DNA from: Candidatus Staskawiczbacteria bacterium | Lineage (GTDB): Bacteria; Patescibacteriota; Minisyncoccia; Minisyncoccales; Staskawiczbacteraceae | Assembly: GCA_903835075.1 (NCBI GenBank) | Contig: CAILLM010000004.1 | Location: 144,532 to 208,531, forward strand | Reading direction: 5' to 3' | DNA: 64,000 nucleotides | Part shown: piece after piece, positions 6,879-64,000 of the stretch | Layout: every line of letters starts with the position of its first letter | Position numbering within the stretch: the stretch's first letter is position 1 | The notes under the pieces: generated by a model | What the model saw: the letters and a program-made list of their open reading frames with translations, nothing else | Database searches by the model: none | What the model was told of the DNA's origin: nothing | Position numbers and translations under genes: made by a program

Positions 6879-8094
6879 AAAGTATTCTATTAAACAAATT
6901 TATCCGTGGTTGGATTGCTTGATGGATCATCTTTTTTTTATTTTTTTTATATGTACATCACCTGTTACTAAAGAGTATTTTTATGGCTATAGTCAAAAAA
7001 TAAAGAAATATTTTAGAGGCAAAGAAATATTTTTCTTGAATAGTGGAAGGTCTGCTTTAGTATTAGCGTTATCGTCTCTTGGTATAAAAAGAAAAGACAA
7101 GGTTGCTATCACAGCATTCAATTGTCCTGCAGTAATAGATTCAATATTAAATGTTGGGGCCGAGCCCATATTTGTTGATATTAATGATTGTGGTGGTTTT
7201 GATTTGAGCCATCTCAAAAAAAGTATAAGAAAGGGCGTTAAGGCGATCATCATAACTCATGTTTATGGAATAGTGGATAATATTAAAGAGATAGAGAAAA
7301 TTTGCAGAGCAGATAATGTTTTAATAATCAACGATCTTGCTCAAGTCAATTCTTTTTTCTCAAAAGATATAAATGAATTTGGCAGTGTCCAAATATACAG
7401 TTTTGGGCCCGAAAAGCCTATTTTTAGCTTAAATATAGGCATAATAACAACAAAGGAGGAAAACATAGCAACTAAAATATCTGAAAATTACACCCAGAAG
7501 ACAGTATCGTCAGCGGATTTAGCCAGTATATTTATTAATCGATGGAAATATTATTTCACTTTTTTTGTTAATAAATATTTTTTTTCATTAGCCAATCTAT
7601 TTGCTAAATGTAATTTGATTTATTTGTTTAAGGATAAGAAGGAAGATGCTGATATAAATTTATACGAAAATATAATAGTAAAAAAAGCCAATCCATTCCA
7701 AATATTTTTAGCGGTGATAGGGATCGAGAAATATAGAAAAAGAATTATTAAGACCGAAGCAAACTTCATGTTACTAAAAAATAGGCTCAATGCTAAGGTT
7801 AAACTTATCGTGCCTGAGAGCTATAAAAATATCGTGCCTCATTATGCAACAATCAGGGCTGAAAAAGACAGGTTTCTCCTATCAAAATATCTTGCCGAAA
7901 ATGGCATTGCGACAGTTTGGAATTATTATCCATTGTATAAATATGCGGCATATAGTAATGTTGCTGGAAAAGAAAACTTATCTGAAACCGATAAAATTTG
8001 GAGGCAAGTTTTATCTTTACCATTTCGTTATCCGCTATCAGAGAGAAGTATTATTAGAATTGCTTATTTAGTAAATAATTTTTATGGCTATTAA
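6838..8094 (+). CDS. DegT-like aminotransferase-fold protein (divergent)
   Basis: 418 aa; FNCPAVIDSILNVGAEPIFVDIN resembles the DegT fold; YSFGPEKPIF lacks the usual GEGG; the true start may lie downstream of 6838. Confidence 0.55.
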   Translation: MIISKMEEYYPPIKKYSIKQIYPWLDCLMDHLFFIFFICTSPVTKEYFYGYSQKIKKYFRGKEIFFLNSGRSALVLALSSLGIKRKDKVAITAFNCPAVIDSILNVGAEPIFVDINDCGGFDLSHLKKSIRKGVKAIIITHVYGIVDNIKEIEKICRADNVLIINDLAQVNSFFSKDINEFGSVQIYSFGPEKPIFSLNIGIITTKEENIATKISENYTQKTVSSADLASIFINRWKYYFTFFVNKYFFSLANLFAKCNLIYLFKDKKEDADINLYENIIVKKANPFQIFLAVIGIEKYRKRIIKTEANFMLLKNRLNAKVKLIVPESYKNIVPHYATIRAEKDRFLLSKYLAENGIATVWNYYPLYKYAAYSNVAGKENLSETDKIWRQVLSLPFRYPLSERSIIRIAYLVNNFYGY

Positions 8095-23363: not shown

Positions 23364-24956
23364 GTGTGCACCTTTAAAATTAAATATGAAAAAATGAGTG
23401 CACATACAATCACAACCACAGCAACCATGAAAAACATACCACGCGCTTGCGACGCTTTTTTTGCTGTAATGGATGCCCAATTTCTGGGTTTGAGTTACGA
23501 TGATGTTTTATTGATTCCGAGATATTCGGACGTTTTGCCATCAGAGATTGATTTGCGCGCCAGAATTTCTCGAAATATTATGATGAACATTCCGGTGGTG
23601 AGTTCACCGATGGACAACGTCACTGAAGAGGATATGGCGATTGTTCTGGCTGAGGAAGGCGGGATGGGAATCATCCATAAGAATCTTTCTCCTGAAGCCC
23701 AAGCTAAGGCGGTTAGGAAGGTAAAGCACCGCATCGCTGCTTTTGTGTCTTCGCCAATTTGTGTGAGAATTAATCAGACAGTGGCAGAAGTTATGGAAGT
23801 TGCAGCGAGGAAAAAATATCCGTTCAGGAGTTATCCCGTAAAAGATGAAGATGGCAAGGTTGTTGGAATTCTTTCAAATAGGGAGGTCGAGTATTGCTCT
23901 GACCATTCTAGAAAGGTCTCCGAAATAATGGTGACAAATATCATCTCTGCACAAGAGTTGGACGACGTGCAAATGGCTTATAATGTCATGAAGGACAAGC
24001 ACATCGGTATTTTACCCAAATTCAATAATTGTGGAGATTTTCTGGGTATCTATACTTGGACCGATGCGAAAAGAATCGTTGAAAAGGGTTCAGCCAATTA
24101 TAATTTGGCGCCTGACGGCACATTGCGTGTTGGAGCTGCTGTGGGGGTTTTGAACAAGAACAACGATGTGACTCAGCGAAGAGTACAACTTCTATCGGAA
24201 GCAGGCGTGGACCTTTTAGTTATTGATACTTCAAAGGGCGATTCCGCCAATGTTGTTGCGATGGTTAAATTCTGCAAAGAGAACTATCCTCACATTGATG
24301 TTGTGGCGGGCAATATTGCAACAGCTGATGCGTCGAGACTCCTTAGAGACGCCGGAGTGAGTGCCGTTAGAGTCGGAGTTGGTCCGGGCTCAATTTGCAC
24401 TACGCGAGTTATTTCTGGCGTTGGCTACCCTCAACTTAGTGCAGTTTATGAGTGTGCCAGAGCCCTGAGAGGATCAGGTGTGGCAGTTTGGGCCGATGGC
24501 GGAATCAGATTTTCTGGTGACATCACTAAAGCCTTGGGAGCTGGAGCTGACGTTGTTATGCTCGGAAGTATTTTGGCCGCAACAACTGAGTCTCCCGGAG
24601 ATGTTATTGAACTCCCAGGAGGTAAAAAATGGAAACTTTATCGTGGAATGGGATCTCTTGGGGCAATGAAGGCTCATCAAGAATCTCGAGATCGTTACAA
24701 ACAAACAGGAACTGCTGGAGACAAACTGGTCCCCGAAGGAGTGGAAGGGAACGTTTTGTATAAAGGCGATGCTGCCGGCGTGCTTTACCAAATGTTGGGA
24801 GGGCTGAGAAGCGGAATGGGCAACTGTGGCGCAGGAACTATTTCTGAATTACAAGAATTAGCAGAATTTGTCAGAATTACGCCGGCTGGTAAAACAGAAT
24901 CGCATCCTGGATCAGGATTGGTGCAATTTGATGGAACAACAAATTATCAAGGATAA
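23364..24956 (+). CDS. guaB: IMP dehydrogenase
   Basis: [13 protein letters not shown], central CBS-pair region, catalytic loop [20 protein letters not shown]. The true start is probably downstream of the GTG at 23364 (for example ATG 23394). Confidence 0.9.
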
Positions 24957-24998
24957 TTACATAGACTGAAAAACAAAACGAAAAAAGAAAACACCGTT

Positions 24999-26519
24999 AT
25001 GAAAACGAATATAAGCATGCATTCGCAATTGATGGACTTGCTTCGCGCCTATTGGAACATCGCCATAAATTGTCTCCAATGGGGAGATACTGGCAAAGGA
25101 AAATTTGTTGATTTAATAACTTATTGGGCAGACGTTATTGTGCGGGGCAGGGGTGGAGCAAATGCCGGTCACTCGGTTTTGTTGGGTGATGAGGAATATG
25201 TATTCCACCTAATCCCGTCCAGTATTTTACATGACATTGATGGCAAAGTTAGCATTATTGGAAACGGAGTTGCCGTTGACCCAAGAATTCTTTGCGACGA
25301 ACTGGCACTTTTGAAAGCCAAGAATCAGTCATATAATAATTTCATGTTGGCACTTAATGCCAAACTCACTTTGCCCACACAAATTGTTCGCGATCGAATT
25401 GTGGACAAAGCGGGTGGCAAGGTGGTAATTGGCACAACTGGCAGAGGGATTGGCCCAACATACAGCGACCACGCTTTACGCATTGGCTTGGAAATTAACG
25501 ACTTGTTAAACCCGGACATACTGGCCAAAAACGTTCGCAATAATGTTACGTATAGTCTGAAGGTTTTGCAGGGTTATGATCCCGAAATTATCAAGGATGT
25601 TATGCATCACGAGCACTTGAGCCGTGGGCTTTACTACCATCCAAAAAAAATATTCGATGTTGATTCCATTATTACTCGGTATTTGCAGTTTGGCGAAGAG
25701 TTGGCTGAATTTATCCAAGACACCGATAGCTTTGTTCAAGCGGCTGTTGGAAGAAGGAAAATCCTGCTTGAGGGCTCGCAAGGCGCATTGCTTGACGTTG
25801 ATAACGGAACTCGTCCCTATGTTACAGGAACAAGTACAATCGTTGACGGCTTGGCAATTGGTGCGGGGTTCAATCTCCATAAGCATCACGTTGACTTGGC
25901 ACTTGGCGTAGTGAAATTCCCCTACATGACGCGAGTTGGTAGCGGGCCATTTCCAACCGAGTTTGGTGATAGAATGTCAGAAGAATGGTGCCGTGACGCC
26001 ACCCAAGAAAAAGATTTGGAACAGTTTGCTACAGCTTCAACTAACGACATCAACGAATTTTCGCAAGGTGGAGCAATTAGACGGCTTGGTCGTGAATTCG
26101 GTGCAACTACTAGAAGGCCTCGTCGTACGGGATGGCTTGATTTACCGCTTTTACGCTATGCAATGCGTTGGGGCAGTGAAAATGTTATCCTAACAAAGCC
26201 CGATGTACTAGACACTTGTGAACAAATAAAGATTTGCACTAGCTATATATACGATGGGCCAGACTATCGTGTTGGGACTCGTGTTTTAACCAAGGGCACG
26301 TCTTTGCGTGAAGCGACCCCCATGGCTTGCGTTTTAGAGCACTGCAAGCCGGTGTACGAAATCCTTCCAGGATGGCAACGGTCAATTCGGGGCATAAGGC
26401 ATTTTCAAGACTTGCCTCCTCAGCTAATTAGCGTTCTAAATTTTGTGGGCGCAGAAGCAGGCATTAAACCGAAAATGATTTCTGTTGGCCCCGCCGCAGA
26501 GGAGACCATCATCGTTTAG
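24999..26519 (+). CDS. purA: adenylosuccinate synthetase
   Basis: QWGDTGKGKFVDL, GGANAGH, GTTGRGIGPTY; at 506 aa it is longer than I remember typical PurA being (~430 aa). Confidence 0.9.
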   Translation: MKTNISMHSQLMDLLRAYWNIAINCLQWGDTGKGKFVDLITYWADVIVRGRGGANAGHSVLLGDEEYVFHLIPSSILHDIDGKVSIIGNGVAVDPRILCDELALLKAKNQSYNNFMLALNAKLTLPTQIVRDRIVDKAGGKVVIGTTGRGIGPTYSDHALRIGLEINDLLNPDILAKNVRNNVTYSLKVLQGYDPEIIKDVMHHEHLSRGLYYHPKKIFDVDSIITRYLQFGEELAEFIQDTDSFVQAAVGRRKILLEGSQGALLDVDNGTRPYVTGTSTIVDGLAIGAGFNLHKHHVDLALGVVKFPYMTRVGSGPFPTEFGDRMSEEWCRDATQEKDLEQFATASTNDINEFSQGGAIRRLGREFGATTRRPRRTGWLDLPLLRYAMRWGSENVILTKPDVLDTCEQIKICTSYIYDGPDYRVGTRVLTKGTSLREATPMACVLEHCKPVYEILPGWQRSIRGIRHFQDLPPQLISVLNFVGAEAGIKPKMISVGPAAEETIIV

Positions 26520-37427: not shown

Positions 37428-38060
37428 ATGAATAAAGATGACGAGCAAATTTTAGTGGTAAAAGCTGATATTATATTTGCGAAAGGTAAATGGCAAGGAT
37501 TACGGGTTGATAATTTGGATTATTATGTTGATTTGATAAAAAATAATTGTGAATTTAAGAGAAGGGGAGATATGGAAAATGATTCTTCTTGGCAACAAAT
37601 AATTCCTTATATTATTTTTTCCGCCGAAGGTAAATTTTTTCTTTATAATTATTTAAAACAAGCCGGTGAGCAAAGATTAAGAAATGATTATATTATTGGA
37701 GTGGGTGGTCATATAAATGAAGATGATGTGGGGGATGGAGCCGCCTTCGCCGAAGGCTCCGGCGAGCCGAAGAAAGATGTGTTGGAAGCCGGGCGCGACA
37801 GAGAGTGGGATGAAGAGGTTAGTTTTAATGGAAATTTAGATAAAAAATTAGTTGGCATTTTAAATGATGACAGGCGGCCCGTTGAAGCAGTACATTTAGG
37901 ATTAGTTTATTTATTTAAAGGCGACAGCCCAGACATTTCAGTAAAAGAAACTGACAAAATGAAAGGTGAAATGTTTACCTTAAAAGAATTAGGAGAAAAA
38001 GTTGTCGGCACCGAAGGTTGGGCTCCAATAATTTACGAAGAATATTTAAGCAAATTATAA
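37428..38060 (+). CDS. hypothetical protein (possibly Nudix-fold-like) with an internal GC-rich insertion
   Basis: 210 aa; WQQIIPYIIF...EQRLRNDYIIGVGGHI; GC-rich block 37729-37772 encodes GDGAAFAEGSGEPK. Confidence 0.5.
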   Translation: MNKDDEQILVVKADIIFAKGKWQGLRVDNLDYYVDLIKNNCEFKRRGDMENDSSWQQIIPYIIFSAEGKFFLYNYLKQAGEQRLRNDYIIGVGGHINEDDVGDGAAFAEGSGEPKKDVLEAGRDREWDEEVSFNGNLDKKLVGILNDDRRPVEAVHLGLVYLFKGDSPDISVKETDKMKGEMFTLKELGEKVVGTEGWAPIIYEEYLSKL

Positions 38061-39595: not shown

Positions 39596-40144
39596 ATGAT
39601 AATTTCAATGATAGCGGCCGTGGCCGAAAACCGCGTAATAGGAAATAAAAATACAATACCGTGGAATTTTCCGCCATACAAAATGGCTGCTGATTTTAAA
39701 TATTTTAAAGAAACAACTTTTGGCAAAACAATTGTAATGGGTTTAAATACTTTTAATTCAATTGGGGGCAAGCCCTTGCCTGGTAGAAAACACATAATTC
39801 TAAATAACGATTTAAATTATGTTGCGCCAGAAGATTGTGTTATAGCTCATTCAATTGAAGAAGTTTTAGAATTAGGAAAAGACCTGACTGCGCAGGCAGG
39901 CGTGGACGAGTTAATGATTTGTGGAGGGGCTTCGGTTTATAAACAATTTTTACCATTATCGCGAAAGCTTTATTTGACTTATGTGCATGTAAGTCCCGAG
40001 GGTGACACTTATTTCCCGGAAGTTAATTTGGCCGAATGGAAAGAGATGAGTAGGGAAGACTTTAAAGCCGACGACCCTTCGACAGACTCAGGGCAGGTAA
40101 ATAATTCATTTGATTATTCATTTGTAATATTAGAAAGAATATGA
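39596..40144 (+). CDS. folA: dihydrofolate reductase carrying two short GC-rich insertions
   Basis: MIISMIAAVAENRVIGNKNTIPW, PLPGRKHIIL, C-terminal YSFVILERI. Confidence 0.9.
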   Translation: MIISMIAAVAENRVIGNKNTIPWNFPPYKMAADFKYFKETTFGKTIVMGLNTFNSIGGKPLPGRKHIILNNDLNYVAPEDCVIAHSIEEVLELGKDLTAQAGVDELMICGGASVYKQFLPLSRKLYLTYVHVSPEGDTYFPEVNLAEWKEMSREDFKADDPSTDSGQVNNSFDYSFVILERI

Positions 40145-40383
40145 TTACGCTAGATCAAATTTCGCAAATAGGAATTGCTATCTTGGGATTGTCAGCTACA
40201 TTTTTAGTTGCAAGAAAAAACAAATGGGGCTTTGTTTTGGGCTTGGCTTCTGAACCATTTTGGATTCTAACTGCTTATTATAACCATCAGTGGGGCATTC
40301 AACTGTTGAATGTTGTTTATGTGTGCACTTGGTCTTATGGTATTTATGTATGGTTTTTTAAAGACAAAAAATATGATAAATAA
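40141..40383 (+). CDS. 80-aa three-TM protein with PnuC-like motifs
   Basis: LVARKNKWGFVLGL...YNHQWG...TWSYGIYVWF; its start overlaps the folA stop (ATGA). Confidence 0.45.
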   Translation: MITLDQISQIGIAILGLSATFLVARKNKWGFVLGLASEPFWILTAYYNHQWGIQLLNVVYVCTWSYGIYVWFFKDKKYDK

Positions 40384-41152
40384 AGAATACGAAGATATAA
40401 TAAAAGCAGCGGTGGCAGGGGGCGAAGTTTTGGAAAAATACTTTGGGGAAATTTTAGATATAACTGTAAAATCTAGGCCCTCCGATGTGCGAACCCAGGC
40501 TGATTTGGGTTCTGAAAAAGCTATTTTGGAAATTTTGTCTGAGAAATTTCCTACTTATAATATTTTTGCAGAAGAATCTGGCGAGAATAATAAAAATTCA
40601 GAATATACTTTTGTTATAGACCCCTTAGACGGAACAAATAATTTTGTTTTGGGAATTCCTTATTTTTCAGTTGGGATTGGACTGATAAAAGAAGACAAAA
40701 TTATTTTTGGCGTTGTTTATAATCCTATATTGAAAAATTTATATGTTGCACAAGAGGGTAGAGGCGCGTTCCTAAATGACAAAAAAATATGCGTTAATAC
40801 AGAAGCGTCTATGGAAAATTCTAGTGTTTCTTTGGTGGTGGAATATGGAGACTTAATTAAATTACAAGAAAGATTGACAGAGACATTAAATCGAATGGGA
40901 GTTAAAAGGTGTTTAACTAATTGGTCTTGCTTGTTGGATTTTTGTCTTTTAGCTTCGGGGAAAATAGAGGCAATAGTTTTCCACGACTGCCCTTTGCATG
41001 ATTTTGTTCCAGGAAAATTAATTGCCAAAGAAGCCGGGGCGATGATTACTGACTTTAATGGTAATATGGAAAAAGATGAAAAGAGTAATACTTTTCTGAC
41101 AACAAACGGAACAAAAATTCATAAAGAATTATTGGAAATTTTGAAGAAATAG
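40373..41152 (+). CDS. inositol monophosphatase-family phosphatase (SuhB/CysQ-like)
   Basis: FVIDPLDGTNNF motif. I prefer ATG 40373 (MINKEYEDII) over the ORF-track start at 40310, which lies inside the preceding gene. Confidence 0.8.
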   Translation: MINKEYEDIIKAAVAGGEVLEKYFGEILDITVKSRPSDVRTQADLGSEKAILEILSEKFPTYNIFAEESGENNKNSEYTFVIDPLDGTNNFVLGIPYFSVGIGLIKEDKIIFGVVYNPILKNLYVAQEGRGAFLNDKKICVNTEASMENSSVSLVVEYGDLIKLQERLTETLNRMGVKRCLTNWSCLLDFCLLASGKIEAIVFHDCPLHDFVPGKLIAKEAGAMITDFNGNMEKDEKSNTFLTTNGTKIHKELLEILKK

Positions 41153-41168
41153 ATTAATATAAAATATT

Positions 41169-42644
41169 ATGGCATATAAACCAACAATAGGGCTCGAGAT
41201 TCATGTCGAGCTAAAAACTAATTCTAAGATGTTTTGCGGGTGTAAAAATGACCCCGATGAAAAAAGGCCAAATTATAATATTTGTCCTGTTTGCACAGCA
41301 CAACCAGGAACCTTGCCCGTTGCTAACGAAGAAGCAATTAAAAAGGTTATAAAAACTGGGCTGGCTTTAAATTGTAAAATTGCTGAAGATTCTAAATTTG
41401 ATAGAAAAAATTATTTTTATCCAGATTTGCCAAAAGGTTACCAGATTTCACAGTATGATCAACCTTTGTGCGAGGGTGGCCACTTAAATATTGGCGGAAG
41501 CCCTTCGACAGGCTCAGGACGCAGAAAAATTAGAATAACTAGGATTCACTTAGAGGAAGATACCGGAAGCTTAGTACATCCAGAAGGCGCGGATTACTCT
41601 TTAGTTAACTTAAATAGAGCAGGGGTGCCATTAATGGAGCTTGTAACCGAGCCCGACATAACTTCGGGTAGAGAAGCGCGCGAATTTGCGGAAGAGTTGC
41701 AGAGGATTTTTAGATATTTAGGCGTTTCTGATGCTGATATGGAAAAGGGGCAAATGAGAGTTGAGCTTAACATAAGCATAAGTAAAGGGAAAACATTTGG
41801 TACAAAAGTTGAAATTAAAAATTTGAATTCTTTTAAGGTGGTTGAGAAAGCTGCAGATTTTGAAATTAAAAGACAGGAAGAAGTTTTAGAGTCTGGCGAA
41901 AAAGTTGTTCAGGAAACACGAGGCTGGCACGACAAAAAAGAAATTACATTCTCACAAAGAGAAAAAGAAGAGGCTCATGACTATAGATATTTTCCAGAAC
42001 CAGACTTGCCACCAATGCATTTTGATAAGGATTATGTAAGAGGGGTGCAATCAACAATGCCCGAATTGCCACAAGAAAAAAGAGAAAGATTTAAAAAAGA
42101 ATTTAAGATAGATGAAAGTTCAATAGAATTTTTTGTTACTAATAAAGAGCTAAGTGAATATTACGAAAAAGTAATTTCGGAATTTAAAGAATGGCTAAGC
42201 GTAGACAAAATTAAAGATAGCGATAAGTTGTATAAGTTAGTAGCTAATTATTTAATTTCTGATGTGCAGGGATTATTGGGTGGTAAAATTTTTGTAGAGA
42301 GTGAGTTTAAGATTACTGCTGAAAACTTTGCAGAGTTTGTAAAGATGATTTATAAAGACGAAATATCTAGCAAGGTTGCAAAAATGGTTGTATTGGAAAT
42401 GTTTAATACTGGCGGAGACCCTTCAGACATTGTAGATCAAAATAATTGGCGACAAATGTCTGATGATGATGGTTTAGAAAAAATTATTAAAGATATTATA
42501 GATAAAAATCCAAAGGCGGTAGGAGACTATAAGGCGGGCAAACAAAATTCTCTACAGTTTATGGCAGGTCAAGTAATGAAAGAGACTAGGGGCACAGCTA
42601 AGCCAGAGAAAGTATTGGAGATATTAAAAAAACTACTGAGTTAA
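41169..42644 (+). CDS. gatB: Asp/Glu-tRNA amidotransferase subunit B
   Basis: YKPTIGLEIHVELKT, CPVCTAQPGTLP, IHLEEDTG, C-terminal YqeY-like tail. Confidence 0.9.
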   Translation: MAYKPTIGLEIHVELKTNSKMFCGCKNDPDEKRPNYNICPVCTAQPGTLPVANEEAIKKVIKTGLALNCKIAEDSKFDRKNYFYPDLPKGYQISQYDQPLCEGGHLNIGGSPSTGSGRRKIRITRIHLEEDTGSLVHPEGADYSLVNLNRAGVPLMELVTEPDITSGREAREFAEELQRIFRYLGVSDADMEKGQMRVELNISISKGKTFGTKVEIKNLNSFKVVEKAADFEIKRQEEVLESGEKVVQETRGWHDKKEITFSQREKEEAHDYRYFPEPDLPPMHFDKDYVRGVQSTMPELPQEKRERFKKEFKIDESSIEFFVTNKELSEYYEKVISEFKEWLSVDKIKDSDKLYKLVANYLISDVQGLLGGKIFVESEFKITAENFAEFVKMIYKDEISSKVAKMVVLEMFNTGGDPSDIVDQNNWRQMSDDDGLEKIIKDIIDKNPKAVGDYKAGKQNSLQFMAGQVMKETRGTAKPEKVLEILKKLLS

Positions 42645-43553
42645 TCAGTAGTTTTTTATTAATTTTTCTGCTTCTTTATAATTTTTAATCCAGTTAATTT
42701 TTTTATCTCTTTTGAACCAAGTTATTTGACGTTTGGCATAATGTTCAGATTCGATTTGTATTTTTTCTATCATTTCTTGTTTGGTAATTTTGTCCTGTAG
42801 ATATTGTGCGACAAAGCGATACTCTAATCCAAATTCTTCAAGTCGTTTCCAAGAAACGCCATTTTTACCGTGCCTGCCGGCAGGCAGGTGAAGTTTTTTT
42901 ACTTCATTAATCATGGCATTATTTTTTAGCCTTTTTATGAGGCGTTTATGAATTAGGTTTTTTAGCTCTTCGGGGGACTTGGTGACACCAATCTGTAGGG
43001 TAATAAAACTCGATTCTTTTGAACCAAGTGTTGGCACGGGCTTGCCCAGCTTAAGGATAACCTCTAGTGCCCTTACAACGCGTCGGGGGTTATTTGGGTC
43101 TATATTACCGGCCCGTACAGGATCAAGCTTTTTGAGCTGTTTTACGAGCTCTGGGAGGGACTTTTTGCTCAATTTCTCTCTAAGGGCCCAGTCGGGCTTA
43201 ACTTCGGGGATAACAATTCCATTAACTATAGATTGAATATAAAAGCCAGTGCCTCCAACTAGGATCGGCAATTTATTGCGTTTTTGAATATCTTTTATGG
43301 CTTTTAGTGCCAGTCTTTGATATTGTACTACCGAAAATCTATTTTTAGGATTTGCAACATCTAGTAAATGGTGAGGAATGCCAGCCATTTCTTTTTTTGT
43401 AACTTTGCCAGAGCCAATGTCCATTCCTTTGTAAATTTGTCTTGAATCAGCTGAAACAATTTCGCCATTGAATTTTTTGGCCAATTTAATAGACAAATCG
43501 GTTTTTCCCGAAGCCGTTGGCCCTAAAATTACTAAAAGTTTATTTTGTATCAT
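42645..43553 (-). CDS. miaA: tRNA dimethylallyltransferase
   Basis: LVILGPTASGKTDLS, SADSRQIYKGMDIGS. Confidence 0.9.
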   Translation of the reverse strand: MIQNKLLVILGPTASGKTDLSIKLAKKFNGEIVSADSRQIYKGMDIGSGKVTKKEMAGIPHHLLDVANPKNRFSVVQYQRLALKAIKDIQKRNKLPILVGGTGFYIQSIVNGIVIPEVKPDWALREKLSKKSLPELVKQLKKLDPVRAGNIDPNNPRRVVRALEVILKLGKPVPTLGSKESSFITLQIGVTKSPEELKNLIHKRLIKRLKNNAMINEVKKLHLPAGRHGKNGVSWKRLEEFGLEYRFVAQYLQDKITKQEMIEKIQIESEHYAKRQITWFKRDKKINWIKNYKEAEKLIKNY

Positions 43554-43700
43554 AACTTTCGCTCGGCAGTGAATTCTCCGCTAGCGTTCGTTGCGCCAGC
43601 GCGCAACTCACTCAGGCTTCGGCAATTTTTCGCCTTCGGCGAATCTTGCAAAATTGCCTGCAGGGTACGCTACGAATTCACTGCCTCGCTACATTTCTTC
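43554..43700. repeat. ~145-bp GC-rich element bounded by an imperfect inverted repeat, between miaB and miaA
   Basis: CGCTCGGCAGTGAATTC ... GAATTCACTGCCTCGCT arms. Internal hairpins: GTTGCGCcagcGCGCAAC, GGCAATTTT...AAAATTGCC, and the CCTGCAGG palindrome. Confidence 0.6.
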
Positions 43701-44999
43701 AGCACTAAGTGTAAATGGAGTAACTGCAATTATTTTGGATTTTATAAATTGTCCAATTTTTATTTTGCTTGATGGGCTTTTTGGGTAAACTTTTATTGTT
43801 CTGTAATGCTGGTCTTTTCCTAGCCAAAAATCATTTTTAGGCTCATTTATTAATACAGTAGTTTCAGTGTCTATTAATTTTTTGTTTTTTTCTAGGGCGG
43901 TTTGTTTTAAAACATCTGTTAAAACTTTTTCTCGTCTCTTTTTTTCTTCTGTAGATATATTGTCTTTTAATTTTGCTGCTGTGGTTCCTGCTCGTGGAGA
44001 GTATTTGCTTATATAGCCCAAATCATATTTTATGTCACGAAAAAGTTTAACAGTGTTGTTGAATTGAGTTTTTGTTTCTCCGGGAAAGCCAACAATTATA
44101 TCAGTTGATAAAGCAATATCAGGTATTTTTTTTCTTAGTTTTTTGATTTTATTTTTGTAAGATTCTACGGTGTAGTGCCTGTTCATTGCTTTTATAACCT
44201 TGTCGTCACCAGATTGTATTGGCAAATTGAGGTAGGGCTTAACTTTCTCGCAGATTGCCATGGCTTCAATTAATTCTTCTGAAAAGTCTTTTGGGTGGCT
44301 TGAAGTAAACCTAATCCAAAAGTTTCCAGGAATATTATTAACCATTTTTAAAAGTTTTGGAAAAGTGTTGGCTTGCTCTGAGCCCGTCGAAGTATCTTTA
44401 TAGCTGTTAACGTTTTGCCCCAAAAGCCAAATTTCTTTGTAGCCACCTTTTACAAGTTTTTTTATTTCTAAAATAATATCTTTTGCAGGTCTTGAAATTT
44501 CTCTTTCCCTAACATATGGCACAACGCAATATGAGCAAAAATTATTACAACCGGTCATTATAGGAACATTCGCAGAAAATTTGTTTTCGTATTTTGGGGT
44601 AATATCTAAATAATCAGTTTGATTTTTTCCCTGCCCTGAGCGTAGCCGAAGGGTTTTTTTGACGCCTAAAAGTTCTGGAATTCTTTTTATATCTTTTATG
44701 TCTAAAACATAATCAAATCCTTCTACAAATATTTTTTTGTCTCTTTTTAAAACACAACCAGTTAAAATTGTTTTTAGCTTTGGCTTGGACTTTTTAATGA
44801 CGTCAAATTTATCAACAAGTCCATGGATTCTATCAACAGCTGATTGGCGTATAGAGCACATTGTAACCAAAATTAAATCAGCTTCATTTATGTTAAGGGT
44901 GCGCTTGTAATTTAACTGCTCTAAAACAGCGGCTGCTCTTTCAGCATCTGATATATTCATTTGGCAACCATATATTCCTAAATAGTATTTCATGCCCAT
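43689..44999 (-). CDS. miaB: MiaB-family radical SAM methylthiotransferase
   Basis: IYGCQMNISDAE, GCNNFCSYCVVPYVRE, C-terminal TRAM-like segment. Confidence 0.85.
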   Translation of the reverse strand: MGMKYYLGIYGCQMNISDAERAAAVLEQLNYKRTLNINEADLILVTMCSIRQSAVDRIHGLVDKFDVIKKSKPKLKTILTGCVLKRDKKIFVEGFDYVLDIKDIKRIPELLGVKKTLRLRSGQGKNQTDYLDITPKYENKFSANVPIMTGCNNFCSYCVVPYVREREISRPAKDIILEIKKLVKGGYKEIWLLGQNVNSYKDTSTGSEQANTFPKLLKMVNNIPGNFWIRFTSSHPKDFSEELIEAMAICEKVKPYLNLPIQSGDDKVIKAMNRHYTVESYKNKIKKLRKKIPDIALSTDIIVGFPGETKTQFNNTVKLFRDIKYDLGYISKYSPRAGTTAAKLKDNISTEEKKRREKVLTDVLKQTALEKNKKLIDTETTVLINEPKNDFWLGKDQHYRTIKVYPKSPSSKIKIGQFIKSKIIAVTPFTLSAEEM

Positions 45000-55723: not shown

Positions 55724-56167
55724 ATGGCAAGTCGTCATTTATCGCGTTCAATTGTTTTGCAATCACTTTATGAGTGGGATTTTTATGACAAAAAGCCTAA
55801 TTTGAAAGAAATTACTGAAAGAAATATTAAGGATTTTGGGCCTGGGCTAGAAGAACTGGATTTTATTTGGAATTTAATTGATGGCGTTGAAAAACATTTA
55901 GTTGAGCTTGATAAAATAATTGAAAAAGCAGCGCCAGAGTGGCCAATTGCTCAAATTGCAATGATTGATAGAAATGTCTTAAGAATTGGTTTGTTGGAAT
56001 TGCTGTATTCAAATAAAGAAGAAGTACCACCAAAAGTTGCCATAAATGAAGCAATAGAATTGGCAAAAACATTTTCAGGGACAACTTCTGGAAAATTTAT
56101 TAATGGAGTTTTGGGAACAGTTTACAAACAATTAGACCCGCCTGCACAGGCAGGAGAAAAAGTATAG
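55724..56167 (+). CDS. nusB: transcription antitermination factor NusB
   Basis: [14 protein letters not shown]..., [22 protein letters not shown]. Confidence 0.85.
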
Positions 56168-56890: not shown

Positions 56891-57334
56891 ATGTTAACTA
56901 TTAGACTAACAAGAAAAGGAAAAAAGAATCAGCCATTTTTTAGAGTGGTTGTAATTGATAAAAGAAGTTCAACAAGAGGTGGAAGATCTGTTGAAGATTT
57001 GGGTTATGTTGACCCATTGAAAAAAAGAAAGAGCCTTAATGCAGAAAGAATAAAATATTGGCTTTCAAAAGGAGCACAAGCTTCAGATACAATGCACAAC
57101 CTTTTAGTTGCAGAAAAAATTATTGAAGCAGATAAAGTTCACGTTTCTAAATTGAGCAAAAAAGCAAAAGAAAAAATGAAAGCAACAGCTGAAGCAAAAG
57201 TTGCAGCAGAAGAGACAGCAAAAGCTAAGGCACCCGCCTCCGCCGAAGGCTCCGTCGAGGCAAAGGAAAAAGAAGAAGTTATACCAGAAGAGGCAGCACC
57301 AGAAGCTACCGAAGAGCCACCCGCCTCCGCATAA
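56891..57334 (+). CDS. rpsP: 30S ribosomal protein S16 with an Ala/Lys/Glu-rich C-terminal tail
   Basis: MLTIRLTRKGKKNQPFFRVVV. Confidence 0.95.
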   Translation: MLTIRLTRKGKKNQPFFRVVVIDKRSSTRGGRSVEDLGYVDPLKKRKSLNAERIKYWLSKGAQASDTMHNLLVAEKIIEADKVHVSKLSKKAKEKMKATAEAKVAAEETAKAKAPASAEGSVEAKEKEEVIPEEAAPEATEEPPASA

Positions 57335-60037: not shown

Positions 60038-60120
60038 GGGCGTGTGGCTGAGCAGCAAAGGCAACAGACTGTAAATCTGTCGGGTTCTACCCTTCGCAGG
60101 TGCAAGTCCTGCCGCGCCCA
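60038..60120 (+). tRNA. tRNA-Tyr (GTA), class II with a long variable arm, no encoded CCA
   Basis: Hand-folded. Acceptor GGGCGTG/CGCGCCC, anticodon arm ACAGA-CTGTAAA-TCTGT, T arm GCAGG-TGCAAGT-CCTGC. Confidence 0.85.
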
Positions 60121-60135
60121 CTTTGCAAAGCAAGG

Positions 60136-60158
60136 TGTCCCGAGCTTGTCGAAGGGCA
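60136..60158 (-). repeat. intergenic copy of the GC-rich CCCTTCGAC..CTC.GG repeat
   Basis: Reverse complement reads CCCTTCGACAAGCTCGGGACAC. Confidence 0.6.
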
Positions 60159-60165
60159 CAAACCC

Positions 60166-60238
60166 GCCGATGTAGCTCAGTTAGCAGAGCATTTCCATGG
60201 TAAGGAAAAGGTCCGCAGTGCAAATCTGCGCATCGGCT
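60166..60238 (+). tRNA. tRNA-Thr (GGT), no encoded CCA
   Basis: Hand-folded. GCCGATG-TA-GCTC-AGTTAGCA-GAGC-A-TTTCC-ATGGTAA-GGAAA-AGGTC-CGCAG-TGCAAAT-CTGCG-CATCGGC-T. Confidence 0.85.
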
Positions 60239-60343
60239 CAGAAATATAGAAATTTCTAAAGAAATTTATATAATTACGTCGCTCGGTCGTAATGAAAATA
60301 AATCTTCATTCCTCCCTCGCTAGTAATTATTAAAAACAAACTT

Positions 60344-60625: not shown

Positions 60626-62233
60626 ATGATACACACATTGGGAAATGTTGATAAGCAAGTTCTTTTGGAAATTGCCAGTGAGAAACAGATTCGTAAAACA
60701 AGCGAACTTTTTTTGTTATTTTCTTTGGGTAGTCAATTTGACCATTTAATTAAGCAGGCCGTAGATAGGCTGGGGGTGTTTTGTTTGGTGGCAGATCCAA
60801 ACAAAATTACAGCAGAAGACGTGAGGAAAATTAAACCTAAGGGAATAATTGTTTCTGGCGGACCAGCCTCTGTTTATGAAGGCACCTTGTCATTTGACTG
60901 TAAAATCTTTGACTTGGGAATACCTGTGATGGGTATTTGTTTGGGCTTTCAACTGTGGGCTCAGCACATTGGGTGTAGTGTTGAGAAATCTCCAAAAAGA
61001 GAATTTGGTACACACCATCTTAGCATATTTGAAAATACAATTCTTTTTAGTGGGTGTCACAGTGGTTGCAATGTTTTAATGAGTCACGGTGATAATGTTT
61101 TGAAAACCACTAACTCTAAAATTAGGGTTTTAGCATATACTGATAATTGTCCAATAGCTGCTGGTAATTACAAGCATCTTTGGGGCGTGCAATTCCACCC
61201 AGAAGTTACAGAAACAACAATTGGCCCCCAAATTTTCTGGAGTTTTTGTTTTTTGATTTGTAAAGCAAAAAACAAATATCCGGCCAAAGATGTGGCAAGG
61301 GAGAAAATATTGTCCCTGCGAGAAACAATTGGTAACAAGAATGTTTTGCTAGCACTTTCAGGTGGCTCGGACTCCTCAACAGTTGCTTATTTGTTGCGTG
61401 ATGCTTTAATTCACGGGCAATATGAAACTACGGACCAGTTGAGGGGAGTATATATTCGCGGAATTGACAGACCCGATGACGAAGATCATGTTCGCAAATA
61501 TTTTGACTGGATTGATTTAAAAATTGTTGATGCTACGGATCGCTTTTTGAAAGCCTTGCGTGGCAAAAAAACAATGCCTGAAAAACGGTTGGCAATGAGG
61601 GGAGTCTATAAGGCTGTGCTTGAAAAAGAGGCCATAGAATTTGGTGCTAATTTTATTGCGCAAGGAACGCTTTTTACTGATATTTCAGAAAGTGGTGGGG
61701 GGTATGAGGGTGAAAAAAAGGCTCAAATAAAACTTCACCATAATGTGGAGTTGGGATTTTCATTCCCAGAGCTTACTCCGCTTGACGACTGTGTGAAAGA
61801 CACTGGGCGTAGCATTGGTAGAGAAATTGGTGTTCCCGAAGATTTACTTGTTCGGCAACCTTTTCCTGGCCCTGGTTTGATTGTTAGGATTGAAGGAGAA
61901 ATTACTGGTGACAAGTTGAAAATTGCTCGTCAAGTGGACGACATTTATATTCATGAATTGCGAAACGCGGGTCTTTATGAAGGCGTTTGGCAAGCAGGCG
62001 CGGTAATTACGCAATCTGTTACAACTTGCACCAAAGGCGACGGCGCTGCTAGTGGAATTGTTGTTGCTTTGTGGGCAGTTTGGAGTGTAAATGGTTTTAC
62101 TGCTCAAGCTGCAGAATTGCCTTGGGATTTCATAAAACTTGTTTCACAAAGAATTACCAATAATGTGCCCGAAGTTGGTGCTGTGGTTTACAGAACTTCT
62201 GACAAACCACCTGCCACCATAGAGTGGGGTTAA
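60626..62233 (+). CDS. guaA: GMP synthase (glutamine-hydrolysing)
   Basis: GATase GICLGFQ...VQFHPE; ATP-PPase LALSGGSDSS; C-terminal ...KPPATIEWG. Confidence 0.9.
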   Translation: MIHTLGNVDKQVLLEIASEKQIRKTSELFLLFSLGSQFDHLIKQAVDRLGVFCLVADPNKITAEDVRKIKPKGIIVSGGPASVYEGTLSFDCKIFDLGIPVMGICLGFQLWAQHIGCSVEKSPKREFGTHHLSIFENTILFSGCHSGCNVLMSHGDNVLKTTNSKIRVLAYTDNCPIAAGNYKHLWGVQFHPEVTETTIGPQIFWSFCFLICKAKNKYPAKDVAREKILSLRETIGNKNVLLALSGGSDSSTVAYLLRDALIHGQYETTDQLRGVYIRGIDRPDDEDHVRKYFDWIDLKIVDATDRFLKALRGKKTMPEKRLAMRGVYKAVLEKEAIEFGANFIAQGTLFTDISESGGGYEGEKKAQIKLHHNVELGFSFPELTPLDDCVKDTGRSIGREIGVPEDLLVRQPFPGPGLIVRIEGEITGDKLKIARQVDDIYIHELRNAGLYEGVWQAGAVITQSVTTCTKGDGAASGIVVALWAVWSVNGFTAQAAELPWDFIKLVSQRITNNVPEVGAVVYRTSDKPPATIEWG

Positions 62234-62254
62234 CTCACAAAACAATTTGTATTG

Positions 62255-62286
62255 CTCTGCGACCAATAGGACGCGGAGTTTTTTTT
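62255..62286 (+). terminator. intrinsic terminator (loop ACCAATAGGA)
   Basis: CTCTGCGaccaataggaCGCGGAG followed by TTTTTTTT. Confidence 0.75.
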
Positions 62287-62299
62287 GGTTATTTAACGG

Positions 62300-62327
62300 T
62301 TGACAAAATGGCAAAAATGAGTAGAAT
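62300..62327 (+). promoter_or_regulatory. TTGACA-16-TAGAAT promoter
   Basis: TTGACA 62300-62305; TAGAAT 62322-62327. Confidence 0.55.
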
Positions 62328-62433
62328 ATATTTATTCGTCCTTTCACATTTTCAAATTGATTTATCTTGGTGGATAGAACCAACGACTGTGCAAGTGCGA
62401 CCAACCAACAACCACAACAACCATAATAACCGT

Positions 62434-63588
62434 ATGAAAGCAAAACGATTGATGTTCAACGTAGGCCCAGTCACTCAGCGTTCAATGCCGTACTGGCCGC
62501 TTCAAAACCCCGGCGCCGACCCGTTTGGTGGACCCATTTATGGCCCGACAGGGTCAATGGCAACTACTGACATCCTCTGCTGGGCCGCCGGCGAGGGACT
62601 GATTGAGCGTACGACAGCCCATGACGATGACCTCGTCCCATGGGATCCCGATAACCTCGAAGACGACATCGATCAGGATGGTCCGGTGTACAAACACATT
62701 ATGGAAATCAAGGCAAAACTCGATGCCGCCGGCCTCGAATTCCATGCCATTACGTGTAACCTCCATTCGCACCCGATGTTCCGTCGCGGTGGCTTGACCA
62801 ACCCCACTCCGGAAATCCGCGAATTGGCCAGGCAGAAGGTTTGGCGGGCGTTGCGCATTGGCGCTTTGCTTGGTGCGACGGCCTTCATTTATTGGATTGC
62901 AAGGGACGGATCCGAAGTCCCCATTGTTGTGCCGCCGCAAGCGATGCAATGGATCGAAGACGGCCTCAACGATGTGACCGATTACATCGAAGAAATGGGG
63001 TTCACCAACTACAAAATGGCGAGCATCGAGGACAAGCCCAACGAACCACGTGGGCATATGTTTTTGCCAACTGCCGGTCACGCCGCGGCATTCACTTACA
63101 AACTCAAGCGGCCTGACTTTTGGAAGGTCAATCCCGAGCTGTTGCAACACGAAGCGATGATTTGCCTCGATGCCGATACATGCGTTCGCTTCTTGGTTCA
63201 TCTCGGGAAGCTGGGCTTCTTGCACTTCGGATGCCAAATCAAGGGGCAATTCGACAGCGACTTCCCGCCGCTTGTTGGACCGGAAGGGTTGAAGGAAACC
63301 GTCAATATGTTCCGCGTGCTCGCACAGCTCGGATGGAGTGGCATCGTTGAATACGATTGCCATCCGTTGCCAACGGAAATGTTTGGTGTCGATCCCACCG
63401 ACTGCCGTAAGCAATTTATCCGTAATTGCAGCGACGGTCTCGGTATCGCGTTGGCCCTGGCCGCACACCTTGAGAAATACAAGGTCGGAGACTTGGGTGA
63501 CAGCGGGGAAGATTTATTGTCCATCCGCGTGATGTGCAGGCTTGGTGACGACGAACTCCTCGGCTTTGTGTCGCGGGATGTCAACTAA
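62434..63588 (+). CDS. divergent class-I (actinobacterial-type) xylose-isomerase-like protein, strongly GC-rich
   Basis: TTAHDDDLVPW (compare FHDDDLIPF), TCNLHSHPMF, IEDKPNEPRGHMFLPT (compare EPKPNEPRG), NPELLQHEAM, FDSDF. Start ATG 62434 (MKAKRLMF). The upstream part of the ORF-track frame is promoter and leader. Confidence 0.7.
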   Translation: MKAKRLMFNVGPVTQRSMPYWPLQNPGADPFGGPIYGPTGSMATTDILCWAAGEGLIERTTAHDDDLVPWDPDNLEDDIDQDGPVYKHIMEIKAKLDAAGLEFHAITCNLHSHPMFRRGGLTNPTPEIRELARQKVWRALRIGALLGATAFIYWIARDGSEVPIVVPPQAMQWIEDGLNDVTDYIEEMGFTNYKMASIEDKPNEPRGHMFLPTAGHAAAFTYKLKRPDFWKVNPELLQHEAMICLDADTCVRFLVHLGKLGFLHFGCQIKGQFDSDFPPLVGPEGLKETVNMFRVLAQLGWSGIVEYDCHPLPTEMFGVDPTDCRKQFIRNCSDGLGIALALAAHLEKYKVGDLGDSGEDLLSIRVMCRLGDDELLGFVSRDVN

Positions 63589-63617
63589 CCGGTAACACGT
63601 CGAATAAACCCAACAAT

Positions 63618-63664
63618 GCCTTTGCGCGAAACTTTCTAAGTTTTGTGCAAAGGCTTCTTTTTTT
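63618..63664 (+). terminator. intrinsic terminator
   Basis: GCCTTTGCgcgaaactttctaagttttgtGCAAAGGC followed by TTCTTTTTTT. Confidence 0.7.
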
Positions 63665-63730
63665 GTGTAAAATAATTTTAGGATTGAAAAAATAATTTTT
63701 TATGGTATATTTATATTAAGTTTGAAAACT

Positions 63731-63804
63731 AGGGGCGTAGTGAAATGGTATCATATCGGTCTCCAAAACCGCTGGTCTGGGTTCGATTCCCAGCGCCCCT
63801 GCCA
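63731..63804 (+). tRNA. tRNA-Trp (CCA) with encoded CCA end
   Basis: Hand-folded. Acceptor AGGGGCG/CGCCCCT, anticodon loop CTCCAAA, canonical T arm CTGGG-TTCGATT-CCCAG, 3' GCCA. Confidence 0.85.
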
Positions 63805-64000
63805 GTTCGGTGTTAATATAATTTTTCCTTCTATTTCAAGATTTTTTACCAATTTTGTAGGCTCAGTTCGGACAATTTTTCGGTCTTTTATCCAAAACCC
63901 ATCCCAGAATAGGGACAAGTAAAGCCTCTTTATATGATAGGGGGCTTTTTTGTATGCTTCATAAACATTCCTTGCCATCATTAAAACCTCTCTTAACAAA
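63751..64000 (-). CDS. 3' end of a second serine-recombinase-like gene (gene starts beyond the right edge); its last ~18 codons overlap tRNA-Trp antisense
   Basis: IKRLYLSLFWDGFWIKDRKIVRT parallels KREIFSTIGSNLIIKDGILTI in the 13269-15023 recombinase. The tails RWESNP and RWLNESVANP are also similar. Confidence 0.5.
   Translation of the reverse strand, partial: LLREVLMMARNVYEAYKKAPYHIKRLYLSLFWDGFWIKDRKIVRTEPTKLVKNLEIEGKIILTPNWQGRWESNPDQRFWRPI

Follow-up and report, generated by a model that had tools for sequence, protein, structure and literature searches.

A short GC-rich repeat, probably a hairpin element of REP/REPIN type, inserted in frame into folA, gatB and miaB of a Candidatus Staskawiczbacteria genome

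A contig of a Candidatus Staskawiczbacteria bacterium, of which a stretch of 64 kb was analyzed (referred to as the window throughout), raises the question why a short GC-rich word recurs in frame inside the genes folA, gatB and miaB and once more between two tRNA genes, when the DNA around it has a GC content of only about 35% overall (31-48% across 2-kb bins). An earlier note, made from the sequence alone, had described this word as near-identical repeats within essential genes, and had compared it with the Rickettsia palindromic elements (RPE), a likeness that proved apt. The present analysis is based on the 64 kb of this genome and on one syntenic gene block of its relatives, namely the syntenic loci L201, L202 and L203, plus L331, which contains the closest relative of MiaB. 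The closest matches of GatB, MiaB and FolA are all labelled as Candidatus Staskawiczbacteria, a lineage of the Patescibacteria or candidate phyla radiation (CPR). The answer reached here is that the sequences in the window are probably copies of a short GC-rich hairpin repeat resembling the repetitive extragenic palindromic sequences (REP) and their doublets (REPIN), and that they belong to a family spanning many bacterial phyla.

Five copies of a word close to CCCTTCGACARGCTCAGGGCAGG are present in the window, one each in folA and gatB, two in miaB, and one in the spacer between tRNA-Tyr and tRNA-Thr. The gene folA (39596..40144, plus strand) codes for a dihydrofolate reductase (DHFR) of 182 amino acids, as judged from its open reading frame (ORF), its orthologs and a match to DHFR in the PDB (E 5e-37), and contains the 24-nt copy CCCTTCGACAGACTCAGGGCAGGT at 40075..40098 on the plus strand, which reads D-PSTDSGQV. 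The gatB gene (41169..42644, plus strand, 491 amino acids), assigned from its ORF, orthologs named GatB and a match to PDB entry 3AL0_B (E 2e-142), carries the copy CCCTTCGACAGGCTCAGGACGCAG on the same strand, with the motif at 41501-41524 and the codon-aligned insert at 41499-41522, reading SPSTGSGR. The miaB gene (43689..44999, minus strand, 436 amino acids), assigned from its ORF and orthologs named MiaB, harbors two copies on the minus strand: CCCTTCGGCTACGCTCAGGGCAGG at 44630..44653 (site a), a variant with a 12-nt loop that was recognized from the sequence and the codon alignment and reads TLRLRSGQG, and the decayed copy ACTTCGACGGGCTCAGAGCAAGCC at 44370..44393 (site b), reading TSTGSEQA within DTSTGSEQAN. 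The intergenic copy CCCTTCGACAAGCTCGGGACACC is located at 60134..60156 on the minus strand, between tRNA-Tyr (60038-60121) and tRNA-Thr (60166-60239). All five copies are single units, and no inverted doublet occurs in the window. Four of them had been reported before and were recovered at the same positions or within 2 nt of them (the intergenic copy at 60134-60156 instead of 60136-60158), with the quoted peptides of folA, gatB and miaB and the identity of both tRNAs confirmed, while the decayed second copy in miaB (44370-44393) had been missed. The term "near-identical" was too strong, since three mismatches or fewer to the 23-mer are seen in the folA copy alone and the loop of the copy at miaB site a is one base longer than in the others; the best agreement among the window copies, between those in folA and gatB, amounts to 18 identical bases out of 24. 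In addition, the sequence AAGCTCGGGTCAGGGA at 1398-1413 on the minus strand, within an ORF of 450 amino acids (reading KKSSGQG), is similar to the repeat's 3' half and may be either a remnant or a chance likeness.

Chance does not account for the window copies. The 23-mer was not matched in any of 100 shuffled sequences at up to three mismatches, the pattern CCCTTCG-N4-6-CTCAGG occurs three times in the window and never in 100 first-order Markov simulations, and a relaxed core pattern was found five times versus 0.17 times on average, and at most 1, in the simulations. Four of the five copies are packed into 4.6 kb (40075-44653), corresponding to a post hoc p of about 0.006 under uniform placement. 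Within a single region where the GC skew is constantly positive, copies are found on both strands, and the orientation of a copy tracks its host gene, not the replichore.

The genic copies are discrete in-frame insertions. Codon alignments with L201, L202, L203 and L331 show gains of 8 codons in folA, 8 in gatB, a net 7 at miaB site a and a net 6 at miaB site b, which confirms the earlier statement that the copies add residues which orthologs lack while the frame is kept. In the three cleanest cases, 24 nt were placed into an oligo-A run. In folA, GAC GA[C CCT TCG ACA GAC TCA GGG CAG GT]A AAT stands against GAC GAA AAA AAT, a difference of exactly 24 nt, and the site is an 8-codon gap in L201 and L203 (empty site GACGAAAAAAAT). 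The gatB site is an 8-codon gap in L203, where the empty site is GGCGGAAAAAAAATT (GGC GGA AAA AAA ATT), and is filled in L201, L202 and L324. Site a of miaB, whose net gain of 7 codons is counted relative to AAA AAA AGG CTA AAA AAT, is empty in L331 (AAAAAAAGGCTAAAAAAT), L203 and L202; the miaB gene of L331 shares 81% nucleotide and 86% amino acid identity with that of the window, and yet its site a is empty. A sequence such as ...KADDPSTDSGQVNNSF... may serve as an example of an insert read across its junction.

The same view emerges at the protein level. Solved structures of DHFR lack the insert residues in PDB alignments, and the GatB of T. maritima (3AL0_B) shows a gap at the position of the insert. 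The inserted residues are thus absent from close and distant orthologs as well as from the solved structures. In an AlphaFold2 (AF2) model of FolA with a mean predicted local distance difference test score (pLDDT) of 85.9 overall, the insert lies in the coil between the last two beta strands (residues 157-173), with the mean pLDDT dropping to 68 at residues 161-170; we take this position to be the G-H loop, going by the known sequence of E. coli DHFR. The inserted eight-residue peptide is harmless. Identical insert-bearing proteins occur in other assemblies, namely P0121 for MiaB and P0241 for FolA (7 contigs), and the inserts are therefore not assembly errors.

Searches with the exact pattern CCCTTCGACANNCTCAGGRC yielded at least 120 loci in species genomes from many phyla, and again at least 120 in viral contigs. 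The first 80 matches come from Sphingomonadales, Burkholderiales, Methylococcales, Chloroflexota, Acidobacteriota, Actinomycetota, cyanobacteria, Planctomycetota, Bacteroidota, Verrucomicrobiota, Saccharibacteria, Peribacteria, Coxiellaceae and Moraxella, and the word is found in complete genomes of cultured isolates (e.g., Sphingomonas sp. 7/4-4) and, on plasmids of other phyla, in intergenic positions. With this distribution across many bacterial phyla and viral contigs, the element is not confined to groundwater CPR organisms. When extended, the word most often reads ...CTCAGGGCGAACGG or ...CTCAGGGCAGGC, the latter being the form of the window. In other genomes, the word is translated in three sense frames, giving PFDKLRA(N)G, LRQAQG and PSTSSGQ, just the peptides which had been named in the earlier note; its presence in all frames, together with the intergenic copy, identifies it as a repeat at the DNA level and not a protein motif.

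In the other phyla, inverted '-+' doublets make up 56 of 105 pairs of adjacent units, with a spacing of 18-66 nt in almost every case, and the doublets measure 60-100 nt and have inverted arms. Tandem half-units were also observed in other phyla (L022, L027, L028). One '-+' doublet at 6834-6937 of the CPR locus L159 lies between convergent genes, directly after the gatB stop codon, and CPR genomes therefore also have the classical doublet form. The unit of the family has a loop of 11 nt (TCGACARGCTC, or the complement when read on the other strand), which is closed by a covarying 3-bp stem and a T-A pair, and a 3' tail reading CAGG/AGGC or CGAACGG. Note that the units for the stem analysis were picked on the exact 11-nt core, with the flanks left free by the search pattern, and the invariance of the loop is therefore a selection criterion and not a finding. 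Among 108 aligned units, the stem covariation amounts to 0.389, compared with 0.177 in shuffles (reached in 0 of 500) and 0.08-0.18 in slid controls, and partner units show the perfectly complementary stem variants GGCT/AGCC, TGGT/ACCA, CCCT/AGGG, TGCT/AGCA and TCCT/AGGA. A covariance model (R1) was built from this 108-unit alignment of other phyla and viral contigs, which contains no CPR sequence. When applied to both strands of the 64 kb at E <= 10, it returned only four matches, corresponding to the copies in gatB (30 bits, E 8e-5), folA (19.1 bits, E 0.03), the tRNA spacer (18.9 bits, E 0.035) and miaB site b (12.7 bits, E 1), and in 1.09 Mb of related CPR loci it returned 13, the L159 doublet being among them.

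No established family was recovered for the repeat. In the window and ten motif-rich loci, Rfam 15 matched only tRNAs at the gathering score, nothing meaningful appeared in L018 at E <= 1, and no Pfam family matched the translated repeats. An origin from a universal molecule such as rRNA or tRNA was rejected, because a composite doublet query matched nothing in 5,426 E. coli genomes, and the word is therefore not part of a universal gene. A full-length insertion sequence was rejected as well: the sole 2.3-kb pair, in L042, has an ordinary gene for a membrane protein between its inverted units. An analysis of k-mer enrichment in the CPR loci was uninformative, being swamped by GC heterogeneity and shared genes. 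Literature searches by peptide or DNA word led only to unrelated papers and those by topic to work on REP and RPE, with no account of this repeat family, which is only absence of evidence, and the family and its mobilizing mechanism appear to be undescribed.

Counting sites and not sequences, the unit stands in sense orientation at ten genic CPR sites, with TCA GGG CAG in frame (PSTGSGQ). These are the C-terminal and the middle site of folA (the latter at the protein level only), loop 1 of gatB and a second gatB site (L325), sites a and b of miaB, the N-terminal region of miaA (L140, L169, L199, L202), tmk (L202), lepA of a Saccharibacterium (L034) and a NUDIX gene (L095). The NUDIX hydrolase, tmk, miaA and lepA genes which carry the word in relatives indicate that its apparent restriction to "essential genes" merely reflected the genes that had been looked at. 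The only antisense exception is found in miaA of L123, giving 10 of 11 sites in sense orientation (one-sided binomial p ~0.006), and the same frame is used at 10 of 10 sites among three open sense frames (p ~5e-5); these sites are subject to a sampling bias, since a single syntenic gene block supplied most of them. As to the targets, the three clean empty sites are runs of A7-A8. Runs of A6 or longer span 5.2% of the junction positions in these genes and outnumber those of T6 or longer by 28:1 on the sense strand, and AAAA is present within 10 nt downstream of 6 of 9 filled sites versus a background of 17%.

Most of the 120 orthologs of each of the three proteins do not have the insert. For GatB, an insert of the type (N/S)PS(T/A)GSGRR is present in 7 of 120 orthologs, which are 76-86% identical; about 100 are empty at this loop and the remainder have unrelated inserts at the same spot. 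The four near neighbors, i.e., the window protein, P0001, P0002 and P0008, show three different insert states. The neighbor-joining tree of GatB is star-like and could not polarize gains versus losses, so that nearest-neighbor identities were used instead. Site a of MiaB is filled only in P0121 among 120 orthologs, a protein 100% identical to that of the window; being filled only in this organism and empty in L331, it represents a lineage-specific gain. At site b, PS(T/A)(G/S)SGQ(A/V) occurs in 13 full-length orthologs scattered among the 120, plus expanded or truncated forms. The C-terminal site of FolA is filled in 7 proteins among those listed, including the window protein and the identical P0241, and the middle site in at least 7 other orthologs, with both sites filled in P0275. 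Expanded or nested copies were seen at miaB site b of L324 and in P0234, P0280 and P0144, where extra residues lie in the middle of the PST...SGQ peptide (PSAGSASSLQASSGQV, PSTSFGAAQDKGSGQA, PSTRASTELSRMSSGQ); the central part of the unit seems prone to additional insertion or duplication.

The inserts themselves are conserved at the nucleotide level. G/C third positions are retained at 77% in the miaB site b insert (five lineages) versus 31% elsewhere in the gene, and at 80% in the gatB insert (four lineages) versus 33% elsewhere (Fisher p of 5e-11 and 3e-7, respectively, for pairs that are not independent). In the repeat, the flanking segments CCTTCG and TCAGGGCA match the conserved insert residues P-S..S-G-Q, and its center, which is variable across phyla too, matches the variable ones. 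In addition, a derived CAA-G variant of the miaB site b DNA is common to five lineages and a site-specific GGAC variant of the gatB insert is common to the lineages that carry it, and the copies at each site therefore trace back to one event or to exchange instead of independent hits. The codons next to the inserts, among them those immediately flanking the gatB insert, have diverged as much as the rest of the gene.

The explanation that we favor, with moderate confidence, is that a REP/REPIN-like hairpin repeat, which was once mobile or still is, has placed copies of single 24-nt units in the oligo-A runs of genes. Inverted doublets located between genes are the prevailing form of the family in GC-rich genomes, and in the AT-rich Staskawiczbacteria lineage single units would have been copied into oligo-A runs within protein-coding genes. 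Insertions would persist if they comprise a multiple of three bases, are free of stop codons and hit tolerant loops, and nearly all survivors would then be in sense orientation, in the frame reading Pro-Ser-Thr-Gly-Ser-Gly-Gln. Such inserts would be translated in the protein and inherited, and may later be lost, decay or be exchanged among relatives. The present or past mobility of the unit is suggested by this scheme, as are the retention of the insert in mRNA and protein and the setting of the frame by selection on the peptide. The copying step may involve a transposase specific for hairpins of single-stranded DNA (HUH tyrosine type), as for REPs, or may proceed without any transposase by microhomology at the oligo-A runs; the A-run targets and the lack of both a duplication and an enzyme fit the latter route equally well. 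Using E. coli RayT, a REP-associated tyrosine transposase (RAYT), as tblastn query against 3.06 Mb of partial loci, one significant match was obtained in L092, 3.3 kb from the motif. This RAYT-like gene (7600-8000 of L092) is 47% identical to E. coli RayT across 51 residues, is cut by the locus end, and adjoins its own GTAG-type palindrome GTAGGTCGGGTTAGCGTAGCGTAACCCGAC, which represents a REP family other than this motif.

Several observations weigh against this explanation. Neither the window nor about 1.15 Mb of CPR DNA from partial loci gave a significant tblastn match to E. coli RayT, and in the loci covered no mobilizing enzyme could be linked to the repeat and no protein or family recurs beside the motif. 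None of the three clean junctions shows a target-site duplication. Folding of the window copies, which have a stem of only 3-4 bp, does not exceed that of shuffled sequences (z ~0), and the hairpin is supported at the family level only, not for the window copies themselves. As the window copies differ from each other even in the best-matching pair, there is no sign of recent transposition here. The preference for A-runs may be partly due to selection, because Lys-rich loops are both A-rich and tolerant to insertions. A purely neutral passenger, mere tolerated junk, would not predict the retention of G/C at third positions. Finally, the carriers of the GatB insert do not form a clade (within-group identity of 0.799 versus 0.826 for the null), and descent with losses or allele exchange fits these patchy carriers with their GGAC variant better than repeated hits.

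The main rival is a transposase-free patch insertion, in which a hairpin-prone single-stranded DNA anneals at an oligo-A microhomology at the replication fork, leaving a repair or recombination footprint instead of a transposon; the donor might be other genomic copies or DNA taken up from other bacteria. SPDIR (illegitimate recombination of the short-patch double type), i.e., the annealing of ectopic single strands at microhomologies and their integration during replication, is a documented process of this kind (bioRxiv 10.1101/2023.11.22.568220). The empty sites of A7-A8, the A-runs kept 3' of most filled sites, the absent target duplication and the lack of a transposase all agree with such an origin, as do the several unrelated GC-rich mini-inserts in the same loops of relatives and the frequency of the word in viral contigs and GC-rich bacteria of like habitats. 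However, SPDIR occurs rarely, and its events vary in size and sequence, whereas here one word with the same boundaries is found at about ten sites. Stem covariation and regular doublets in the family point instead to a dedicated process that recognizes structure, at least in other phyla, and no donor was found. Patch insertion therefore appears unlikely. A broader version of it, in which several GC-rich hairpin repeats enter CPR genes without transposase as nuclease-resistant single strands at oligo-A microhomologies, with an ongoing drive or a function of the hairpin keeping the G/C positions, is speculative and likewise has a low probability. If it were true, CPR proteins would constitute a readable cross-phylum record of patch insertions, made from strands of other genomic copies or from strands scavenged from neighboring or host bacteria and phages. 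A nucleic-acid signal kept by the host, such as a protein-binding site, a hairpin affecting mRNA stability or pausing, or a processing signal, would explain the high retention of G/C third positions (77-80% versus 31-33% elsewhere in the genes), the mapping of conserved residues to the repeat flanks and of variable ones to the loop center, the conserved loop with stems covarying across phyla (in units picked on the exact loop core), and the copy between two tRNA genes. It is nevertheless unlikely, given that most close relatives lack the insert at every site, that the window copies are weak hairpins with z values around 0 and have no match to an Rfam family, that the copy at miaB site b is decaying in this genome, and that the copies lie in scattered protein loops whose positions bear no shared relation to the starts or ends of genes.

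The repeat might also be a signal for DNA uptake or recombination, comparable to the DNA uptake sequences (DUS) and uptake signal sequences (USS) of Neisseria and Haemophilus or to Chi, and spread among relatives by biased uptake and homologous recombination in a process of molecular drive. Inverted pairs after genes and a location in permissive reading frames are known from uptake sequences as well, and the same insert at the same codon with a patchy, non-clonal spread among relatives, the high conservation at the nucleotide level and the common inverted doublets of the family would all be in line with this idea. Yet known uptake sequences occur about once per kb, and the density observed here is far too low, with 5 copies per 64-kb window and 13 model matches per 1.09 Mb of relatives. 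Moreover, the flanks of the gatB insert have diverged like the rest of the gene and therefore give no sign of recently imported patches, and the word is found in many phyla with unrelated uptake machineries. A polarity like that of Chi or of the FtsK-orienting polar sequences (KOPS) is excluded, since the orientation follows the gene within constant GC skew; a resemblance to KOPS, considered because miaB site a holds GGGCAGGG, was dismissed as the orientation follows genes and not the replichore. A signal of this sort is thus very improbable. Even less can be said for convergent protein evolution, in which selection for a flexible PSTGSGQ loop linker would have produced the likeness of the DNA as a by-product: the peptide is indeed small, polar and loop-friendly, and all genic copies share this frame, but the data contradict it by the intergenic copy in the window, the intergenic doublet of L159, the occurrence of the word across phyla in every frame as well as in non-coding DNA, the use and retention of rare G/C-ending codons (TCG, GGC, GGG) in a 35% GC genome, and the 12-nt-loop variant, which gives another peptide (LRLRSGQ) from the same word. 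The chance that the inserts are an assembly or sequencing artefact from chimeric reads or adapter remnants is practically nil. Nothing speaks for it except that a GC-rich word looks odd in a metagenome-derived genome rich in AT, and it is contradicted by the identical insert-bearing proteins in independent assemblies (P0121, and P0241 from 7 contigs), orthologous inserts with their own substitutions in other lineages, the word in complete genomes of cultured isolates (Sphingomonas sp. 7/4-4) and the kept reading frames.

The repeat is not the only small insertion in this gene block. A second mini-insert in folA at 39884-39901 on the plus strand (CTGACTGCGCAGGCAGGC, LTAQAG, 18 nt) also occurs in L201 and is absent from L203; other FolA orthologs carry the PSTSSGQ repeat at exactly this site, and the insert is modelled by AF2 as an extension to the helix formed by residues 87-101. 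A five-residue addition follows the conserved PW motif of FolA (PWNFPPYKMAADF versus PWHLPADF; 39674-39688, plus strand, residues 27-31), which is present in a minority of FolA orthologs and falls in a region with a mean pLDDT of 64 (residues 21-30). The miaA gene on the minus strand has a 21-nt palindromic insert, CCTGCCGGCAGG... (LPAGRHG), at 42867-42887, which is absent from L202 and L203 and looks like a second GC-rich repeat family; the miaA genes of L202 and L203 carry their own mini-inserts elsewhere (RSGRNDFGIKG, PPSPSGSGEPS, SAYGRSPEGR). The gatB loop at 41499-41522 is a hot spot, with the unrelated inserts QSPSPKATADRR, PARNASHSDAGGEGK, SLGEGGEMR, RNPKSEIRK and HQDKSQNPNP in orthologs and two tandem PPS(Q/L)KA(S/T)ARQ units in L131, and the inserts of the RNPKSEIRK type are likewise scattered over the GatB tree. 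Other GC-rich palindromic islands, found at 37722-37813, 57221-57266, 56133-56158 and 43576-43623 (e.g., CCGCCTTCGCCGAAGGCTCCG, present in two places, and CCTGCACAGGCAGG), may represent further families of mini-repeats. The local GC content is raised to 0.48 at 62001-64000 and 0.46 at 24001-26000, versus about 0.35 elsewhere in the window, and GC-rich islands are numerous at 62.5-63.5 kb. Among the relatives, a gyrB gene of L328 (20127-20214) is annotated with an intein-splicing domain in a product of 1299 residues, and P0181 (738 residues) contains MiaA and MiaB domains and is apparently a fusion.

If the hairpin-repeat explanation is right, a recurrent oddity in the annotation of metagenomes would be accounted for, with the peptides PFDKLRA(N)G, LRQAQG, PSTSSGQ and SLSKG of many hypothetical proteins all arising by translation of a single hairpin repeat, and the streamlined CPR genomes would tolerate repeat insertions in DHFR, GatB, MiaB, MiaA and LepA. 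The natural presence/absence alleles would then be available for studies on how insertion takes place, on how well enzyme loops tolerate it and on the exchange between CPR populations. On the practical side, the inserts cause length differences and local misalignments in marker genes of CPR phylogeny.

Among known systems, miniature inverted-repeat transposable elements differ from this repeat by their size of 50-500 bp, compared with a unit of 24 nt, and by the target-site duplication, which is missing at the three clean junctions. DUS and USS are similar as short conserved words that are tolerated in particular frames, form inverted pairs after genes and are conserved at the nucleotide level without a protein reason. 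However, the density is one to two orders of magnitude lower here, and this word measures 23-26 nt, has a structured core and occurs in phyla with unrelated uptake systems. The GC clusters of yeast mitochondria and related mitochondrial mini-elements are mobile palindromes, short and GC-rich, that are scattered over a very AT-rich genome, some of them inside coding sequences, but as they belong to a different genetic system and sequence family they provide an analogy only. The RPE are likewise palindromic repeats in frame within genes of a reduced AT-rich genome, translated as surface additions. The classical RPE-1 is about 100-150 bp long and restricted to Rickettsia, unlike the 24-nt unit and its family across many phyla. 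RPE-4 and RPE-6 have been equated with CGTC repeats (PMC3733652).

The in-frame insertion of palindromic repeats into genes is already known from RPEs and REPs. Single units of GTAG- or CGTC-tagged REPs in ORFs encode 8-9 residues (Di Nocera et al. 2013, PMC3733652), and the REP-bearing genes include those for pyruvate dehydrogenase subunits, e.g., with VAPAQAGA in E1 and E2, the additions being inferred to form loops or linkers (PMC3733652). This is the same phenomenon as that of the window inserts, at the same size, and the earlier claim of an undescribed element appears to hold for this family only, single REP units in ORFs having been catalogued for others (PMC3733652). The sequence families differ, as seen from the CGTC-1 peptides VAPAQAGA and VVPAKAGM, and none of the peptides of this word is present in the supplementary tables of that study, which did not include CPR bacteria (PMC3733652). 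Compared with REP/REPIN in general, the family reported here has no GTAG or CGTC end tag, its units ending with CCGTTCG/CGAACGG or CAGG, no RAYT is linked to it in the partial loci, and the sole RAYT seen (L092) has another REP. REPIN-RAYT systems are described as mostly inherited vertically within individual lineages (bioRxiv 10.1101/2022.05.22.493013), whereas the 11-nt loop and tail of this family recur across many phyla and viral contigs. The copies of the window are mostly not extragenic either, as four of five lie inside ORFs, all as single units. In copy number, REPs reach tens to hundreds per genome, and the 64 kb covered here holds five. On the other hand, the family shares with REP/REPIN its short GC-rich imperfect palindromes of 20-40 nt, which are dispersed and often arranged as inverted doublets with a strong orientation preference, its stem covariation, which shows that structure matters, and its location mostly between genes in most carriers. 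The features that would be unexpected for ordinary REPs are the cross-phylum identity of the loop, the oligo-A empty sites and the slow synonymous change of G/C positions.

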